Shown here one piece after another: positions 9,465 to 17,803 of a DNA stretch of 20,666 nt. Source of the stretch: Hadesarchaea archaeon (GTDB lineage Archaea; Hadarchaeota; Hadarchaeia; Hadarchaeales; Hadarchaeaceae). Positions within the stretch are counted from its first letter, which is position 1. Each line of letters starts with the position of its first letter. A program made the position numbers and the translations under genes. The stretch spans positions 1 through 20,666 of the forward strand of contig JAUXAS010000006.1 of NCBI GenBank assembly GCA_030619825.1. Reading direction: 5' to 3'. Below the pieces are notes generated by a model. That model was not told where the DNA came from and searched no databases. It was given only the letters and a program-made list of their open reading frames with translations.

Positions 9465-10957
9465 GCACCACCCAACACCGCACTTATGTAGCCGCCCGAG
9501 TTCATCACAGCTTCCTGCGCTGGGCGCACGATGTCTATCCCGAGCTGCGGGAGTACCCCGAATACCACGCAGAGAACCGCGAGCAACATAATCGGGAACA
9601 TCATGGGTAGCGGGGTTTCTTTTACATCGCTTAAATGTTTTGGCCGCTGCCCGAGGAAGATCGAGTTGAGTGCCTTCAGGAAGTAAGCGAGCGTCAGGGC
9701 ACTTGTGATGAGGGCAATGATGGTGAACACGGGCTGCCCGGCCTCGATGCCAGCCACGTAGATCATCCATTTGCTCGCGAACCCGTTGAAGGGTGGTACC
9801 CCTGAAATCGCGAGGGCCCCCACCACGAACAGCGTCGCGGTCACTGGCATGTTCTTCCAGAGCCCCCCGAGCTGGTCCATGTTAGAGGTTCCAACGCGGT
9901 AGATGATTGCCCCGGCGATCATGAACAACATCGTCTTGTAAATGGCGTTGTTGAAGAGGTGGAAGAGCCCGCCTTGGATCCCCAGCACTGTGCCCAAACC
10001 GATTCCGAGTAGGACGTAACCGACCTGGGAAATGCCTGAGTAAGCCAAGAGACGCTTGAGGTCACGCTGGGCGAGGGCCATTAGCGCCCCGATCACCATC
10101 GTCACTAGCCCGAGGGCAGCGAGCATGATTCCTATCGCGAAAGCCCCGAATAATGTGTAGACCACCCGCACCATCGCGTAAATTCCGACGGTCGCGGTAG
10201 CCCCCGAGAAGAGGGCGGCCACGGCCGAGGGCGCGGCCTGGTAGGCGTCGGGCATCCACATGTGCAGGGGTACCACCGCAATCTTGATGCCGAGTCCCGT
10301 CACGAAGAGGGCGAGCGGCACAATCACGGCTGATGGGGATACTTGGCCGAGCTTCTGCGCTAGGTCGGCGATGTTGAGGCTGCCCACGAGCCCGTAAAGA
10401 AGTGCAATGCCCAGCAGGATAAACGAGGTCCCCAATGAGCTGACGATCATGTACTTGATGCTTGCCTCGATTGACTGCCACTTTCGCCTGAACGCCACGA
10501 GGGCGTAGGAGGAGATGCACATTATCTCGAAGAACACATAGAGGTTGAAGATGTCTCCCGTGAGCGCGACGCCCATCATCCCAGCCACGATGAGTAAAAA
10601 GAGTGTGTAATACTGGTCGAGCCCGGTATCGCGCTCCATGTAGACGAAGGAATAAATCATGACGAGTGTGCCGATGCCGGCAACGATGAGCGCAACGAGC
10701 AAGTTCAGCCCGTCGATGGCAAGGTTGACCCCCCAGGGAGGCTGCCACCCTCCTAGCTGATAGACGAGCACTTGGCCGCCCCACACCGCTGGCAACATGC
10801 TCGCCACGACCGCGAACTCCGCAAGCACGACAGCGATCGCAAACCACTCCCGGGCGCGTTTGATGCCTCGCCGGCGAGACAAAATTCCAATTACCGGCAT
10901 CAGGAATGCAGCGAACAGCGGGAGCAGGATGGCTAAAATTGGGGCGTGGGAGATCAC
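9461..10957 (-). CDS. mbhH: Mbh subunit H, MrpD/NuoM-like antiporter subunit
   Basis: TGDIFNLYVFFEI, KIAVVPLHMWMPDAY, DLKRLLAYS and GVPPFNGFASK motifs; many TM helices. Confidence 0.95.
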   Translation of the reverse strand: MISHAPILAILLPLFAAFLMPVIGILSRRRGIKRAREWFAIAVVLAEFAVVASMLPAVWGGQVLVYQLGGWQPPWGVNLAIDGLNLLVALIVAGIGTLVMIYSFVYMERDTGLDQYYTLFLLIVAGMMGVALTGDIFNLYVFFEIMCISSYALVAFRRKWQSIEASIKYMIVSSLGTSFILLGIALLYGLVGSLNIADLAQKLGQVSPSAVIVPLALFVTGLGIKIAVVPLHMWMPDAYQAAPSAVAALFSGATATVGIYAMVRVVYTLFGAFAIGIMLAALGLVTMVIGALMALAQRDLKRLLAYSGISQVGYVLLGIGLGTVLGIQGGLFHLFNNAIYKTMLFMIAGAIIYRVGTSNMDQLGGLWKNMPVTATLFVVGALAISGVPPFNGFASKWMIYVAGIEAGQPVFTIIALITSALTLAYFLKALNSIFLGQRPKHLSDVKETPLPMMFPIMLLAVLCVVFGVLPQLGIDIVRPAQEAVMNSGGYISAVLGGA

Positions 10958-11319
10958 TCCTTCAACCTCCTGAGCTTCGATGGGTCAAGCGTGCCGTAGT
11001 GGCGGTAGGCGTAGATGGTGAGCGAGAGAGCCAGCGCGAGGATGCAGATGTTGATGACGATTGAGGTCAGCACGAGTGCTTGAGGGATGGGGTCGACGGC
11101 TTGGGCGGCAAATCCAGGGAGATCCGAGAACATCTCCCCGCTGACGATCGCAGCCGCGCCTCCTGAGCGATATCCAAGGCTTATCAGGAAGAGGTGGATC
11201 CCATCGGTCAGCACGACTAGGCCGATGATGAGCTTGATCAGGTTTCGCTTGAGCAACAAACAGTAGAGCCCGAGCGCGACTAGGAGCATTGCGATGACAT
11301 AGTTGAAATCCAACTTCAC
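10954..11319 (-). CDS. mbhG: Mbh subunit G (MnhC-like)
   Basis: NLIKLIIG and DPIPQALVLTSIVI motifs. Start is uncertain (GTG 11319 or TTG 11313) because of the repeat. Confidence 0.9.
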   Translation of the reverse strand: MKLDFNYVIAMLLVALGLYCLLLKRNLIKLIIGLVVLTDGIHLFLISLGYRSGGAAAIVSGEMFSDLPGFAAQAVDPIPQALVLTSIVINICILALALSLTIYAYRHYGTLDPSKLRRLKE

Positions 11320-11349
11320 ACCCCTGTGAATTTCACACCCCTGTGAAGT
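11313..11349. repeat. Two tandem copies (17-bp period) of the palindrome TTCACA-CCCC-TGTGAA
   Basis: Exact copies at 11315-11330 and 11332-11347; outer ACTTCACA...TGTGAAGT symmetry. Confidence 0.95.
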
Positions 11350-11363
11350 CCAGGTTCGTTCAT
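11316..11363 (-). other. Putative translated mini-ORF MNEPGLHRGVKFTGV linking mbhF to mbhG
   Basis: ATG overlaps the mbhF stop (ATGA) with a GAGGTGA RBS; its TGA overlaps the mbhG GTG (GTGA). Confidence 0.55.
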
Positions 11364-11794
11364 TTTTCGTCACCTCTGAAAGCGAACAGCATCGCGTAGA
11401 AGATCAAGAGGATGCCAGCCGCGACCTTTATCCCGACGCCAAGGTAAAGCAGGGGCAAGTTGCCAGCGCTGAAAAGCTGCCCGAGCTCCCCCAGCGGAAA
11501 CTTGTTTTGCAGGAATGCGACGCCGAGCAAGAGGCTGAGCAAGCCGAGGACGACTATCGCTAACCCCCCGATGCTTTCAAGCACTTCAGCTTGCAAGAAG
11601 CTAACCTTCGTTTCCGCCCGCTCGATGCCGTAGGCTAGGAGTAGCATCACCACCGAGGCGGCGATGATCACACCACCCGGGAAACCCCCTCCGGGAGTCA
11701 GGTGGCCGTGGAGCACAATGTAGGCGCCGAAGAGGAAAGTGAACGGGAAGAGGAGCCTCGTGATGGTTCGAACGATCACCGTCATTCCTGCCAT
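11360..11794 (-). CDS. mbhF: Mbh subunit F (MnhB-like)
   Basis: HGHLTPGGGFPGG and LFSAG motifs. Confidence 0.92.
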   Translation of the reverse strand: MAGMTVIVRTITRLLFPFTFLFGAYIVLHGHLTPGGGFPGGVIIAASVVMLLLAYGIERAETKVSFLQAEVLESIGGLAIVVLGLLSLLLGVAFLQNKFPLGELGQLFSAGNLPLLYLGVGIKVAAGILLIFYAMLFAFRGDEK

Positions 11795-12093
11795 TACTCT
11801 CGCCTCCTGAATGCCCTGAACACCATCACCACGCCCACGACAGCCGTGAAGAGCACCGTCACCTCGCCCAGCGTGTCGTAGCCACGATAACCCCAGACGA
11901 CGCTCGTAACCACATTTGCCGCACCCGTCTGCTGGGGAGCATCCTCTAAAATCCGCTGCCCGATGCTGTTCTCGAGATCTTCCCCGATCTGGCGGGCGGG
12001 GAAAGAGCCGAATGGTAACAAGTTAGTGCTGACGGTGAAAACAAGCAACGCGCCAATCGCCAAGACCATCCCAAATGCCAGCACTCGCTGCAT
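11794..12093 (-). CDS. mbhE: Mbh subunit E
   Basis: [26 protein letters not shown] motif. Confidence 0.92.
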
Positions 12094-12345
12094 CTATTCT
12101 TCCCTCCTCGTGCGGCTTATCGCTATTACGAATATCACGGTCGCCACCCCCACCCCCACGGCCGCTTGGGTGATTGCGATATCGGGGGCCTGAAGCATGT
12201 AAAAAATTACGGCGAGGGAGATGCTCGCGCCGGCTAAAACGATCACCGAGTGGAGCAGGTCCTTGAGCTCGATCGCGATTAGGGCGAACACGAACAGGAG
12301 CACGAGCAGGGCATTTTGGATCAGCAACTCGAGACTCAATTTCAC
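12094..12345 (-). CDS. mbhD: Mbh subunit D
   Basis: KDLLHSVI and LQAPDIAITQAAVG motifs; three TM helices. Start is GTG 12345 or TTG 12339. Confidence 0.9.
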   Translation of the reverse strand: MKLSLELLIQNALLVLLFVFALIAIELKDLLHSVIVLAGASISLAVIFYMLQAPDIAITQAAVGVGVATVIFVIAISRTRREE

Positions 12346-12379
12346 ACCCCTGTGAACTTCGCACCTCTATAAACTTCAC
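12341..12379. repeat. Same 17-bp-period palindromic repeat: one exact, one degenerate and one partial copy
   Basis: TTCACACCCCTGTGAA at 12341-12356, TTCGCACCTCTATAAA at 12358-12373 (12/16 identical), TTCAC at 12375-12379. Confidence 0.9.
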
Positions 12380-12383
12380 TCAT
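12342..12383 (-). other. Putative translated mini-ORF MSEVYRGAKFTGV linking mbhC to mbhD
   Basis: ATG overlaps the mbhC stop with a GGAGG RBS; its TGA overlaps the mbhD GTG. Confidence 0.55.
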
Positions 12384-12706
12384 GCTTTCTCCTCCTTGAG
12401 CTTGTCGACCACGCTTCGACGCCAGAGCTTGACGCCGGACTTGTGGGCTGCCCGAGCGATCGCATGGGAGCCCACCGGGTTTGTGAGGAAGAGGAAGAGG
12501 GCGATAATAAGAGCTTTTAAGGTGTACAAGCTGAGCCCCTCGAGCACACTCACACCTATAAGAGTCACAATCACCCCACCGACCACGACGACGGTATTTG
12601 CGTGAATTCGGTTGTAAACGTCTGGGAAGCGCACGATTCCCATCGCCCCAATGAGAGCACAAAAGGCGCCGATACCAAGCAAGATGTAAGCGATTATTTC
12701 AATCAA
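12380..12706 (-). CDS. mbhC: Mbh subunit C (MnhG-like)
   Basis: GIVRFPDVYNRIHA and TNPVGSHAIARAA motifs; TTG start. Confidence 0.93.
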   Translation of the reverse strand: MIEIIAYILLGIGAFCALIGAMGIVRFPDVYNRIHANTVVVVGGVIVTLIGVSVLEGLSLYTLKALIIALFLFLTNPVGSHAIARAAHKSGVKLWRRSVVDKLKEEKA

Positions 12707-13574: not shown

Positions 13575-13721
13575 TTGAACACTTTGCTGTTTGTGCCCAT
13601 GTTGATCGTGACCTGGCACATCGGCGTGACCTTGTTCGAGCGTTCTCGCTGCACACGCCAGGCAAGCCCCCCGTTGGCGTTTCCCGGCGGATTTACAAAT
13701 CGTGGCATGGGGAGCTCATGA
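13575..13721 (+). CDS. Possible 48-aa small protein with hydrophobic N-terminus
   Basis: TTG start after AGGCGGG; open frame MNTLLFVPMLIVTWHIGVTLFERSRC...GSS; its stop overlaps the ATG of the next gene; TTTTAAA at about 13537-13543. Confidence 0.35.
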   Translation: MNTLLFVPMLIVTWHIGVTLFERSRCTRQASPPLAFPGGFTNRGMGSS

Positions 13722-16700
13722 GGGGGTTTATTTCGCTCGTACTCATGCTCGCGGTGCTGCTTTTAGCGACGGTTCCGGCCAGAGCCAGCTTGGACGTTTT
13801 TACCGACGATAACTTCAGCTCACCCGGAGGGCTGGATGGTGTCGAGGTTGTTGCTGGTGATGTAAGGTTGAAGATTACTCCCGAGAACTGGATGCAAACC
13901 ACAAAAGCTGATTTTGGGCAATGGCTGAACTACGACAATGTAGCGCCCATCGATCCCGGGGACGTAAAACTTGCGAGCACGGGCGACGAGTGGTCCACCC
14001 TAGAAAATGCACCGTACAAGTGCACTTATGGCATAACCACGACCGGTGCCGGAGACTACATATTTATCCTCAAAAGCTACTGGGCCGACGTCAAGGTTGG
14101 GATAGGACGATACAACACCGCGACCAAGAGCTGGGAGAATTGGAGTAACCCAACGATTGAGTGGCATGAAAAGAAGCAGTACTTTAAAAATGGTTGCTCG
14201 ATAGCTTGGGACAATGGCGGCTACATTTACGTGCTTGCGGGGGGCAGCTACGATGATACATCCAATCCATCCGATCCCACCACGCATGAGCCCCGTTACG
14301 GCTTCTGGCGCTTCTCGGTCGACAATCCATACAGTTGGGAGCGTCTCGAGAACACGCCATGGCATCAAGGCCCAGGGGATGCTTTAGTTTGGGCAAGGGT
14401 TAACGGCGAGAACTACATCTATGCGTGGATTGGTACCACAAGCAAAAATCGCGGGCGTGGTTGTGGGGTAAAATTTTATCGCTATAGCATTCTCAGCGAG
14501 CAATGGGGCGCAGAGCCGATAACCGAGATAGGGAAGCTGTACTCTGATAACGAGGTTTCGCCGCCCTACGGTGCCGACGATGGGTCGAGCTTGGTTTGGA
14601 CCGGAGGGGATTACATCTATTTCTTACCGGGCGCCTATACCGAGAACCTATCCCCCAATAAGGAACGCTATTTTACACGTTTTGTAATTTCGGAGAATAG
14701 ATGGGAAAAACTGGCGATGTTGCCCTACAACGAGAACCCAAACACGACAGAGAGCGATGGTGTCGATGACGGTGGCTCGATGGTCTGGGATGGCGGCGAT
14801 TACCTTTACGTTTTGAAGGGCGGCGATGGCAATGGTGATAACGCGGCGGACAATTTCTGGCGTTACAGCATCATCTCGAACTCATGGGAGGTGCTGACAG
14901 GAGTTCCGTTTGGGCCGTCTAAGAACAACGGTAAAAGGCTAGGGTACGCGGGCGAGAACGTGTATTACTGGCATGCCAACTCAACTGGGTTCTTAGTATA
15001 TGCACCACCGAGGTACAAGGAGAGCGGCTATTTTACCTCGAGTGTTTTCGATGCAGGCACGATTGCGACTTGGCAGCAGATAAGCTGGGATGGGAGCGAG
15101 CCTCTTGGGGCGCTTGACAAGAAAAGACTCGTCAGCGCCGAGCCGGTGAATTTGATTGACAACAGGGGTAAGCTGGGCGTGCTGCCGTCCCTGCAAGTCC
15201 TTTCGAACCCGAGCTTTGAGTTCGGCGCCACGCCAAGTGGCTGGACGCTGGTGTATTTGGGAAATGAAAATACGGGGGGGACTTGGGATACCCATGGGAA
15301 TTATGTGGACGGGAGCGCATCCGGCCGTGTGAAGCAGGTGTCAGGTGGCTTAGGTTTCAGGGGTAGCGCGGCTGAACAAACGTCGAGCACTTTTGGGACA
15401 GTAGATCAAACTGCAACTAACACTTTGAGATACTATGCGAGATATCAATATCACGGAGGCAAGGATAGTGCCGATTTGCGCATGGTGATCGTTGAAGTAG
15501 AATTCACAAGCGGCTCCACGACCTATAAACTCAGGTATTACCACTCCAACGCAGGAATGCCGACGGATAACGCCACCGTGAAATACATCGATGGGGGGTA
15601 CCCCGGGTGGCAGACATGGACCCCGGAGCAAGTGTGCAACCTCAACGAGAGCATCAGGAACAAGTTTGGGCTAACAACGTTTGCCGTGACTGCGGTGCGC
15701 GTTGGAGTTTTGATGAATAAAATTAACTCGGGAAATACTACCATTCATGGTTTGTTTGACAACCTTAGATTGATAAAGGAGAGTCCATTGGAGGATTACA
15801 TCGGCACGAGTCGTAGGGATGGCGTCTACGAGAACATCAGCGAGAATTGCACCGCCTCGGTCAATCAGTACAAATACGTGGTGTCTCACGCCAGCGTCAA
15901 GGGGGCCGTCGATGGCTTCGAAGATCAGCAGAGCGCGACCGATGGTGGGACGCACTCGACGTTACACGAGCAAGCATACACCGTACAAGTGACCGCGACT
16001 GAGAAAATTAACCCGAGCGATGACGCGTATGTTGGAGAGGATTCTCCTGATATCATGTATGGGTCCGCCAACTCGGCTAGATTGGGCACCCGAACTCAAA
16101 CAGGCGCAAACAGGCGGGCATTTCTAAAATTTGACTTTTCAGGAATTCCAACGAACGTCGCGATCACCGAGGCGAAGCTCTGGCTCAGAGTTTACTCCTA
16201 TTCAAATCCAGTAGATGAAATGAGGCGCGTGCAAAGTTGGTCGGTTACCGACGATAGCTGGACCGAGGGCACCGTAACTTGGAATACTCAACCAAACCTG
16301 GTAAAGAATCTCGGCACGGCGTACATAGACGGATATAAGTGGTTCTCATGGATGGTCACGGGCTTTGTGCAGGATCAATTCGGGGGTGACAACCTCGTGA
16401 GTTTCAGCATCAGGCATGGGAATGAAAATCTTGATGACACAGCGAGGACCATCTACTACCGCTCCAAAGAATCCGATGTCGACGATCCTTACCTCGAAGT
16501 CACCTACGCGGTGCCAAGGACGCATTACAACTTGGAGATCCACGAGGGCGTCGACAACTTACCTTTGGGCACCAACTACACCCTTCAGATTCGTTACAAG
16601 CTCAGCAACATCAACGATAACTTCAAGGTCATGGTCAAAGATAGCGCGGGAAATTGGAACTACCGCGGGAAGAGTTTGGGCAGCTCCATGGATTGGGAGC

Positions 16701-17803
16701 TCTGGGAGTACCGGCTGCTCAATAACGAGTTTATCGCAGACGGGGACAGCGTGGGTAATAATGTGCGAATCAAGTTCGTCGATTGCGACAACGAGGCAAC
16801 GGGTGCGGCCGATTTGCTCATAGATTACATTCGGGTCAAGAGCACAAAGGCAAATAACTACACCCTTCGCTGGGAACACCGCATCACAGGTGTCGAGAAC
16901 ACTTACGAAAATGTTATCCTCCGAATCTATGGCTACAACGCAACCGGCGACGAGAACGCGATCGTCAGCGTCTGGAATCGGAGCGCTAGCGAGTGGGAGA
17001 ACTTCGCGGAGGACCTATCAACGGCTCTAGGAGAGATCACCCACAGGCTCACAAATGTTGGCGATTACCTAGTGGAGGATAGCATCTCGATTAAGTACGA
17101 GGGCGCGGACAACACTGATGATATTCAAACAACAATATGCATCGATCACGTCGTTCTTGAGGCGCAAAAGCCATACTCAACGGCGCTGCGTGTTTGGGCG
17201 AGGAGCAGCGCGGATAACTCCACGTGGTCCGACTGGGTCGAAAACCCGAGCGGCGATAGCTTGCCGTTGGAGAACCGCTACTTCCAGTACCGCGTCGAGC
17301 TCTCAACCACCGACTCCGAGGTGACTCCCATGCTTCACGAGCTCATCGTTTATTACGTGCCTTGGTCGCCTCGCGTTGGCACCTTCACCAGCCAGGCGCT
17401 TGAGCTGGGTCATGTGGAAAACTGGGGGATGCTGAGCTGGGAGGCGGCGCTGCCTGAGAACACCTCGATCTCCTTCGCCACCCGCTCGTCGCCCGATGGC
17501 TTGAACTGGTCTGAGTGGGAGGAGCTGGAGTCGAACGCCATCCAGAGCCCGACCCACGGCATGCTCTATTTGCAGGTTCGGGTGACGCTTCAAGGGGTGG
17601 GTTCCCTCACGCCGACGCTTCGAAGCTATAACATATCCTACACTCCCGAGCGTGCGGCGGAGAAAATAGCATTAGTGGCAACGGTGGGCGCGGCTGGCAT
17701 CGCGGCAGCTGGAGTTGCGTGGGTGTTTTTGAGGGGGCGGTTGCACGCCGGGAGGCGAAGGCGGCGTCTTGGACAAAAGCGCAGACGGGCGAGGAAGCGA
17801 TAG
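13718..17803 (+). CDS. Large membrane-anchored cell-surface protein (signal peptide, Kelch-like propeller, CBM-like and DNRLRE-like domains, C-terminal TM with basic tail)
   Basis: Hydrophobic N-terminus ending ARA-S; Kelch-like GGDYIY...F.RY....N.WE.L repeats; SNPSFE...FDNLRL; DDAYV..RAFLKFD..WTEGTVTWN..SKE; many NxS/T sequons; TM helix followed by RRRRR. Confidence 0.88.
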   Translation: MRGFISLVLMLAVLLLATVPARASLDVFTDDNFSSPGGLDGVEVVAGDVRLKITPENWMQTTKADFGQWLNYDNVAPIDPGDVKLASTGDEWSTLENAPYKCTYGITTTGAGDYIFILKSYWADVKVGIGRYNTATKSWENWSNPTIEWHEKKQYFKNGCSIAWDNGGYIYVLAGGSYDDTSNPSDPTTHEPRYGFWRFSVDNPYSWERLENTPWHQGPGDALVWARVNGENYIYAWIGTTSKNRGRGCGVKFYRYSILSEQWGAEPITEIGKLYSDNEVSPPYGADDGSSLVWTGGDYIYFLPGAYTENLSPNKERYFTRFVISENRWEKLAMLPYNENPNTTESDGVDDGGSMVWDGGDYLYVLKGGDGNGDNAADNFWRYSIISNSWEVLTGVPFGPSKNNGKRLGYAGENVYYWHANSTGFLVYAPPRYKESGYFTSSVFDAGTIATWQQISWDGSEPLGALDKKRLVSAEPVNLIDNRGKLGVLPSLQVLSNPSFEFGATPSGWTLVYLGNENTGGTWDTHGNYVDGSASGRVKQVSGGLGFRGSAAEQTSSTFGTVDQTATNTLRYYARYQYHGGKDSADLRMVIVEVEFTSGSTTYKLRYYHSNAGMPTDNATVKYIDGGYPGWQTWTPEQVCNLNESIRNKFGLTTFAVTAVRVGVLMNKINSGNTTIHGLFDNLRLIKESPLEDYIGTSRRDGVYENISENCTASVNQYKYVVSHASVKGAVDGFEDQQSATDGGTHSTLHEQAYTVQVTATEKINPSDDAYVGEDSPDIMYGSANSARLGTRTQTGANRRAFLKFDFSGIPTNVAITEAKLWLRVYSYSNPVDEMRRVQSWSVTDDSWTEGTVTWNTQPNLVKNLGTAYIDGYKWFSWMVTGFVQDQFGGDNLVSFSIRHGNENLDDTARTIYYRSKESDVDDPYLEVTYAVPRTHYNLEIHEGVDNLPLGTNYTLQIRYKLSNINDNFKVMVKDSAGNWNYRGKSLGSSMDWELWEYRLLNNEFIADGDSVGNNVRIKFVDCDNEATGAADLLIDYIRVKSTKANNYTLRWEHRITGVENTYENVILRIYGYNATGDENAIVSVWNRSASEWENFAEDLSTALGEITHRLTNVGDYLVEDSISIKYEGADNTDDIQTTICIDHVVLEAQKPYSTALRVWARSSADNSTWSDWVENPSGDSLPLENRYFQYRVELSTTDSEVTPMLHELIVYYVPWSPRVGTFTSQALELGHVENWGMLSWEAALPENTSISFATRSSPDGLNWSEWEELESNAIQSPTHGMLYLQVRVTLQGVGSLTPTLRSYNISYTPERAAEKIALVATVGAAGIAAAGVAWVFLRGRLHAGRRRRRLGQKRRRARKR
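17660..17677 (+). repeat. 18-bp direct repeat, left copy (GAGAAAATAGCATTAGTG)
   Basis: Identical to 20616-20633. Confidence 0.85.

Follow-up and report, generated by a model that had tools for sequence, protein, structure and literature searches.

Palindromic units at two mbh gene starts of a Hadesarchaeon: probable footprints of a small palindrome-HTH cassette

How did a short palindrome come to stand in tandem at two gene starts of an archaeal mbh operon, and how are the genes behind it still begun? The window (the whole 20,666-nt stretch of Hadesarchaea archaeon DNA that was analysed) holds three exact copies of the 16-bp core TTCACAGGGGTGTGAA, all on the minus strand, at 11315-11330, 11332-11347 and 12341-12356, and a fourth, diverged copy at 12358-12373. 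When up to two mismatches were allowed, four core matches were observed against a mean of 0.56 in shuffled sequence, and none of 100 shuffles reached four. The genes at the two junctions encode mbh-type subunits by their Pfam domains (MnhB, Oxidored_q2, PhaG/MnhG and MbhD), and the features of the two junctions are as follows.

11332..11347, minus strand: palindrome core, first unit of the mbhF/mbhG doublet, exact match.
11315..11330, minus strand: palindrome core, second unit of the mbhF/mbhG doublet, containing the GGGGTG Shine-Dalgarno (SD)-like hexamer and the mini-ORF stop (11318-11316).
11316..11363, minus strand: 15-aa mini-ORF, presumably translated, opened by the ancestral mbhG ATG and overlapping the mbhF stop.
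10954..11313, minus strand: mbhG from its predicted TTG restart (11313-11311).
11360..11794, minus strand: mbhF, the upstream gene, MnhB domain (Pfam).
12358..12373, minus strand: diverged first unit of the mbhC/mbhD doublet, identical to the core at 12 of 16 positions.
12341..12356, minus strand: palindrome core, second unit of the mbhC/mbhD doublet, containing the SD-like hexamer and the mini-ORF stop (12344-12342).
12342..12383, minus strand: 13-aa mini-ORF, presumably translated, opened by the ancestral mbhD ATG and overlapping the mbhC stop.
12094..12339, minus strand: mbhD from its predicted TTG restart (12339-12337).
12380..12706, minus strand: mbhC, the upstream gene, MnhG domain (Pfam).

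The tandem repeats described in a first-pass annotation of this DNA are thus real at both junctions, by the located copies, the shuffles and the agreeing contigs of other runs (below), and both of its near-identical mini-ORFs, 11363-11316 and 12383-12342, are present; the start of each overlaps the upstream stop as ATGA, and its closing TGA overlaps an in-frame GTG. The mbhJ/mbhK junction, which had been named as a native copy of the same element, was rejected as such, since the left arm is absent there and GGTGTGAA is conserved in only one of five relatives. No known RNA family was matched by Rfam at the four loci searched, and no sigma-70-type promoter or terminator was found at the units with models that are ill-suited to archaeal promoters.

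Orthologous junctions aligned across the genus and outgroups, a check that had been proposed for this locus, include both filled and empty alleles. The mbhF/G junction is filled in 12 of 13 genus-level genomes (this one counted; G011 is empty), the mbhC/D junction in 9 of 11 (G008 and G002 are empty), and in seven outgroup genomes both are empty, a plain overlap leading into the subunit frame. Because relatives show empty sites, we read the units from these alignments as insertions behind the ancestral start codon. The first mbhD unit is intact in G003, G010, G013 and G001 and decayed in G000 (this genome), G004, G009 and G012. The mbhD insert is flanked by a 4-base repeat and most mbhG inserts by a 5-base repeat, which may be target duplications at the mbh sites.

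The palindrome is the commonest perfect inverted repeat of this genome, with six exact copies that all lie at four co-directional gene junctions, namely the two mbh sites, secretion ATPase/T2SSF and hisG/hisA; several overlap stop or start codons. The proposed search of the genome and its relatives found copies concentrated in the genus and at operon junctions: 12 of 13 genus relatives carry the pattern TTNACAGGGGTGTNAA, versus 1 of 27 other genomes, and a 20-base extended pattern had 25 stretches among 185,579 species, 20 of them in Hadesarchaea/Hadarchaeota records and five that were single bacterial matches without junction context, taken as chance. The palindrome consists of a fixed GGGG centre between variable arms, with compensatory arm variants T/A, C/G and G/C. 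Arm type is largely common to all sites of a genome (C/G in G000, G003 and G012; T/A in G001, G010 and G013), and is mixed in G004, G006, G009 and G007. At hisG/hisA palindromes occur across genera, with an arm type that differs by lineage, and this junction is clean in at least 8 of the 30 genomes shown. The two units of a junction doublet repeat directly, with GGGG running the same way in both, and at the junction copies examined the mRNA has the G-rich sequence; some copies lie between convergent genes and some just upstream of TATA-like boxes. At several junctions the spacers between palindromes contain 14-base palindromes with a CG or GC centre that are common to loci (L003:3226-3354). 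In G010 a palindrome doublet is adjoined by a foreign ORF that separates the DHQ synthase II gene from the dehydroquinase gene (L066:381-1013), and in G006 two palindromes, the first followed by a TATA-like box, enclose a non-HTH ORF of 232 codons, possibly a cargo cassette (L164:711-1484).

At the ATPase/T2SSF junction, where this genome has the doublet only, G003, G010 and one G012 contig carry a gene of ~105 codons between palindromes. Its ~100-aa product gives weak Pfam/NCBIfam matches of helix-turn-helix (HTH) type only (HTH_3 and HTH_23, E 6e-6 to 8e-4), its AlphaFold model is all-helical with a mean pLDDT of 93.8, and the nearest folds are XRE, Aca and R-M controller proteins (Z 6.8-5.6, Foldseek E >0.05). 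An XRE/Cro HTH fold is predicted, with scores that are middling and fold searches that exclude no known family. Matches of the cassette protein to IS families cover the HTH stretch only, and those shown in full lie far below the cut-off. A profile search placed the family in 29 of 66 genomes of the phylum, weak matches included, and found no member in this 89% complete assembly; an Atlas search returned only unnamed or generic HTH look-alikes, and no relative in viral contigs was confirmed among 37 pattern matches. An XRE-fold HTH gene flanked by this palindrome in uncultured Hadarchaeota is apparently undescribed: our literature search, outside which most subscription papers and bioRxiv supplements lay, found no description of such a palindrome-HTH element.

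The linkage between gene and palindrome is close. A palindrome lies within 200 nt of the HTH gene at all 36 genomic loci and on both sides at 19 of them (five of the 36 have little downstream sequence), and palindrome density is 7.4 per kb near the gene versus 0.19 per kb far from it. The rule for the palindrome was fixed after the first loci had been viewed and was therefore tested on 32 held-out metagenome loci, collected by protein alone, 31 of which have a GGGG-centred palindrome (the miss is a short fragment); the next-best loop tetramer occurs at 9 of the 32. Copies lie upstream of the gene at 34 of 36 genomic and 31 of 32 metagenomic loci, both phylogenetically redundant sets. Of 110 HTH-flanking copies, 21 have the opposite orientation. 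Many of these genes (L110, L114, L118, L120, L126, L127 and L130) share a leader past the TATA-like box with an anti-SD-like CCTCCA, a possible translational self-control of the HTH genes. In G050 (L143) six palindrome copies upstream of the HTH gene have an exact 27-bp period that could be mistaken for CRISPR, and in G033 (L115) the HTH cassette lies between cas4 and cas1.

Arms and protein also vary together. Among 38 non-redundant HTH proteins, retained of 57 after de-duplication, half-site distance correlates with helix-3 distance (partial r 0.60, compared with 0.15 for the rest of the protein), and the top seven of 82 protein windows for half-site correlation all overlap helix 3. A post hoc and underpowered independent-pairs test gave three of four pairs in the same direction, which is not significant (p 0.25). 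For the HTH at the pilus-operon junction, helix CPGAVSN goes with C/G arms and TQAAVSH with T/A arms. From these comparisons we infer that the palindrome is the predicted binding site of the HTH protein, a dimer of which would bind the arms. The earlier suggestion that the mbh units are operators stands at the level of sequence, where the arms track the predicted recognition helix of the linked HTH family; a regulatory role inside mbh is putative.

The HTH gene occurs in at least 25 different neighbourhoods, and among 80 neighbouring ORFs there is no recurring partner and no linked integrase, the neighbours being varied housekeeping genes and, once, a TnpB-like gene. Seven junctions of this genome that are orthologous to cassette sites are clean, and two carry one degenerate palindrome each where G005/G008 carry the cassette. 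Two contig regions (G000:C37 and G000:C92) are paralogous copies of one neighbourhood, each with a single degenerate palindrome at the cassette site. The EF-1alpha-family junction holds a cassette in G010, a doublet in G006 and G007, a singlet in G011 and a remnant in this genome, and G007 has one doublet, spacer included, repeated at two unrelated loci. The left end of the G012 cassette shares 36 identical bases with mbhC/D, including the rare first-unit variant, and its right end 34 with mbhF/G, which points to copying between cassette ends and mbh loci. In run X1 the dominant allele skips the cassette, and in run X6 the cassette stands at about half the flanking depth. A closed loop of 330 bp, made up of the HTH gene and two units, is also present in run X1 (L107 / L021:140-469) at ~6% of flanking depth; it may be an excised circle or, because run X6 has a 36-base repeat node (a 36-bp direct repeat), an assembly-graph loop.

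The cassette is thus likely mobile, and the sequence identities make it likely that the mbh units were copied from cassette ends; the case for this origin is indirect, because the 79 HTH loci, a redundant set, include none at a junction of mbh, his or aro genes. No recombinase is encoded in the cassette, whose ends are direct copies of the palindrome and not terminal inverted repeats. Among five HTH-rich draft (incomplete) genomes, searches gave no tyrosine-integrase match in three and no Y1-transposase match in four, nor was there a Y1 match in this genome. The cassette would insert at gene junctions and later be lost between its direct repeats, and its ends would be copied or converted to other sites by a putative trans-acting enzyme.

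On balance we favour, with some reserve, the reading that the mbh units are footprints of a mobile palindrome-HTH cassette, tolerated because a bridging mini-ORF would lead by way of stop and SD to a TTG restart. It corresponds to the first-pass idea of a self-neutralising repeat, largely borne out by the empty sites, by the six exact copies at four junctions and by the stop, SD-like hexamer and restart that are supplied. Against it, beside the indirect origin and the lack of a family member in this assembly, stand the genomes with mixed arm types and the three alleles with a different stop-to-TTG geometry (below). Passive scars, moreover, do not account for both arms changing together at numerous sites within a genome, for which an active process or selection is needed, and the palindromes at hisG/hisA across genera would fit a long-term function too. 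A bolder version can be put forward only tentatively, and we would not bet on it: that the ~100-aa HTH gene and its own palindromes form a minimal selfish element whose helix and arms co-diversify, the HTH directing insertion, circular excision and genome-wide site rewriting through a host enzyme at the GGGG centre, and the site targeting ribosome-binding regions so that each insertion repairs the operon it breaks.

The most serious rival makes the palindromes operators of a host regulon, bound by the HTH inside mbh, his, aro and pilus operons as roadblocks or polarity controls and kept matched by selection. Concerted arm change requires conversion or selection, and this reading therefore stays alive: the largely genome-specific arm type agrees with the flanks of the pilus-operon-junction HTH, hisG/hisA and the region ahead of the 3-dehydroquinase gene have old sites, and some copies lie just upstream of TATA-like boxes. 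We nevertheless think it unlikely, as the HTH is patchy in the phylum (29 of 66 genomes, weak matches included) and was not found in near-complete G002, which retains one unit, junction copies decay, the target genes have no evident pathway in common, and the genes around the HTH loci are many and unrelated.

A poorer candidate still, and an improbable one, is an mRNA hairpin under host selection, masking the SD until a terminating ribosome opens it and so tuning subunit stoichiometry. The compensatory arm changes and the G-rich side on the mRNA strand at the junction copies examined would suit it, and the fold of the mbhG doublet has an energy of -19.1 kcal/mol (z -2.1), but one unit alone gives only -4.8 or -2.5 kcal/mol, the mbhD region has a z of only -0.8, and there is no Rfam match in the four loci. 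Moreover, empty alleles are viable in close relatives, copies occur between convergent genes and upstream of promoters, some HTH-flanking copies are reversed (above), and the arms track a protein helix. A hairpin role is supported weakly, and at mbhG only.

Under the footprint reading, translation has to pass the insert. The predicted TTG restart, in this genome 50 nt from the old ATG at mbhG and 44 nt at mbhD, is present in all 21 filled alleles of the genus, and the old start is out of frame in every one, including the single-unit alleles of G008, G007 and G002. In 18 of the 21 the mini-ORF stop lies 2 nt ahead of the in-frame TTG although leader lengths vary; in the other three, from one clade, a one-base deletion shifts the stop beyond the TTG and breaks this +2 geometry. 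The TTG sits 5 nt past the GGGGTG hexamer, the spacing seen most often in this genome where G[AG]GGTG precedes a long ORF (23 of 58 cases, of which up to two may derive from the element itself); a search of this assembly gave no 16S 3' end. The GTG that overlaps the mini-ORF TGA, earlier pointed out as lying in the frame of the real subunit, occurs in 8 of the 18 alleles whose mini-ORF finishes in the last unit, as against 21 of 21 for the TTG, and was rejected as a conserved start: alleles with T/A arms have GTA there, and the codon also overlaps the SD-like hexamer. A further GTG, upstream at 11373 and in frame, would lengthen MbhG; it was also set aside, being present in only 4 of 12 alleles.

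The geometry of a -4 overlap into the mini-ORF and, in 18 of 21 alleles, +2 out of it is that of a termination-reinitiation junction, where the stop and an SD-led start are only a few bases apart. Without the mini-ORFs the stop-to-start gaps would be 46 and 40 nt, and in Haloferax gaps of 22-23 nt abolish reinitiation (PMC10666635). Because the gaps would otherwise be this long, the mini-ORFs are predicted to bridge the coupling: the old ATG at mbhD and mbhG would open a short peptide that delivers the ribosome to a stop 2 bases before the new TTG, so that termination-reinitiation keeps going over an otherwise 40-46-nt gap. Units likely survive inside operons in this way, because each brings along a stop together with a predicted SD and TTG restart. 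Measured against translational coupling as described in PMC6728339 and PMC10666635, the mbh junctions are alike in their ATGA overlaps, internal SD, very short stop-to-start distances and heteromeric-complex operon, and differ in that the bridging ORF of 13-15 codons is made by an inserted repeat; the coupling here is a prediction.

The same alleles speak to the proposal of a copy-number frame switch, by which slippage would toggle MbhD and MbhG between an ATG-initiated in-frame form and the reinitiated form and so tune stoichiometry. Its arithmetic is correct, as removal of 17 nt would put the old ATG in frame at both sites of this genome, and tandem units can slip. We reject it as highly improbable: not one of the 21 filled alleles is in frame, single-unit alleles included, the contigs of all four runs list no indel at the mbh junctions (contigs drop rare variants, and a minority allele could hide), and the first mbhD unit has decayed in the four genomes named above. 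That the repeats are an artefact of assembly, as short tandem palindromes in a metagenome-assembled genome might suggest and as the first-pass annotation had allowed, can be dismissed, as contigs of runs X1, X6 and X7 span both junctions with no gaps and share the structure, which recurs in 8-11 other species-level genomes of the genus.

Several known systems resemble parts of this one. The closest in outline are the REP/REPIN sequences with their RAYT transposases, in which dispersed extragenic palindromes match copies beside the cognate gene (PMC3116915). As there, repeated extragenic palindromes occur as singlets and doublets, and the dispersed sequence is the same as the copies flanking a cognate protein gene. 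By contrast, the Hadarchaeota partner is a ~100-aa XRE-fold HTH without a transposase domain and not a Y1/HUH tyrosine transposase, doublets are mostly direct and not inverted pairs with long hairpins, copy number is about 1-25 and not hundreds, the HTH gene itself occurs at many sites, and copies also serve as SD, stop and start. R-M controller proteins, Aca proteins and HigA are autoregulatory XRE-fold proteins with inverted-repeat operators. They are alike in predicted fold, size and a palindrome at the own promoter or start, whereas the Hadarchaeota HTH has no partner R-M, anti-CRISPR or toxin gene among the 80 neighbouring ORFs, its sites lie at both gene ends and are dispersed genome-wide, and its arms and recognition helix diversify together; the fold likeness itself is at Z <=6.8 and Foldseek E >0.05. 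Integron cassettes have long attC hairpins and a linked integron integrase. With these and with the minimal mobile elements of Neisseria the cassette shares the gain or loss of a single gene between conserved neighbours and bounding palindromes with an asymmetric centre, but its sites are 16-18 bp, its insertion sites are many, and no integrase is found among the 80 neighbouring ORFs. It differs from an insertion sequence or MITE in lacking a transposase and terminal inverted repeats, and from a phase-variable tandem repeat in that 0 of 21 alleles are in frame and four runs, on contigs only, have no indel. The very small dispersed repeats (SDRs) of Nostoc are palindromic inserts of roughly 20 bp with empty sites in relatives, as here; we know of no cognate DNA-binding gene with a co-varying helix, nor of SD/stop/start bridging, described for them.

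If the footprint reading is right, this is an archaeal repeat-plus-protein system that works like REP/RAYT with a bare DNA-binding domain as partner, and it poses the question of what moves or homogenises 16-bp sites without a linked recombinase. The mbh junctions would then show how an insertion is absorbed in a tightly coupled operon via a bridging mini-ORF, and gene callers would miss the TTG restarts there. The 38 natural helix/half-site pairs form a test set for the XRE recognition code and for orthogonal regulators.

Other features of the window and of a related locus were seen in passing. At the G012 mbh locus (L044), mbhE and mbhH have identities of 76% and 60%, versus 84-92% for mbhC, D, F and G, and this greater divergence in sequence suggests that the G012 operon is a mosaic. 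In the window, a three-gene minus-strand run at 679-2824 consists of a MerR-type HTH plus HNH protein, an AAA_22 ATPase and a 135-aa protein without assignment, and a 1361-aa ORF with an apparent signal peptide and C-terminal anchor (13718-17803) is divergent from the mbh operon. At the contig end (17864-20451), a nucleotidyltransferase gene with a small partner is followed by an AbiEi/AbiEii-type pair, likely two toxin-antitoxin modules.
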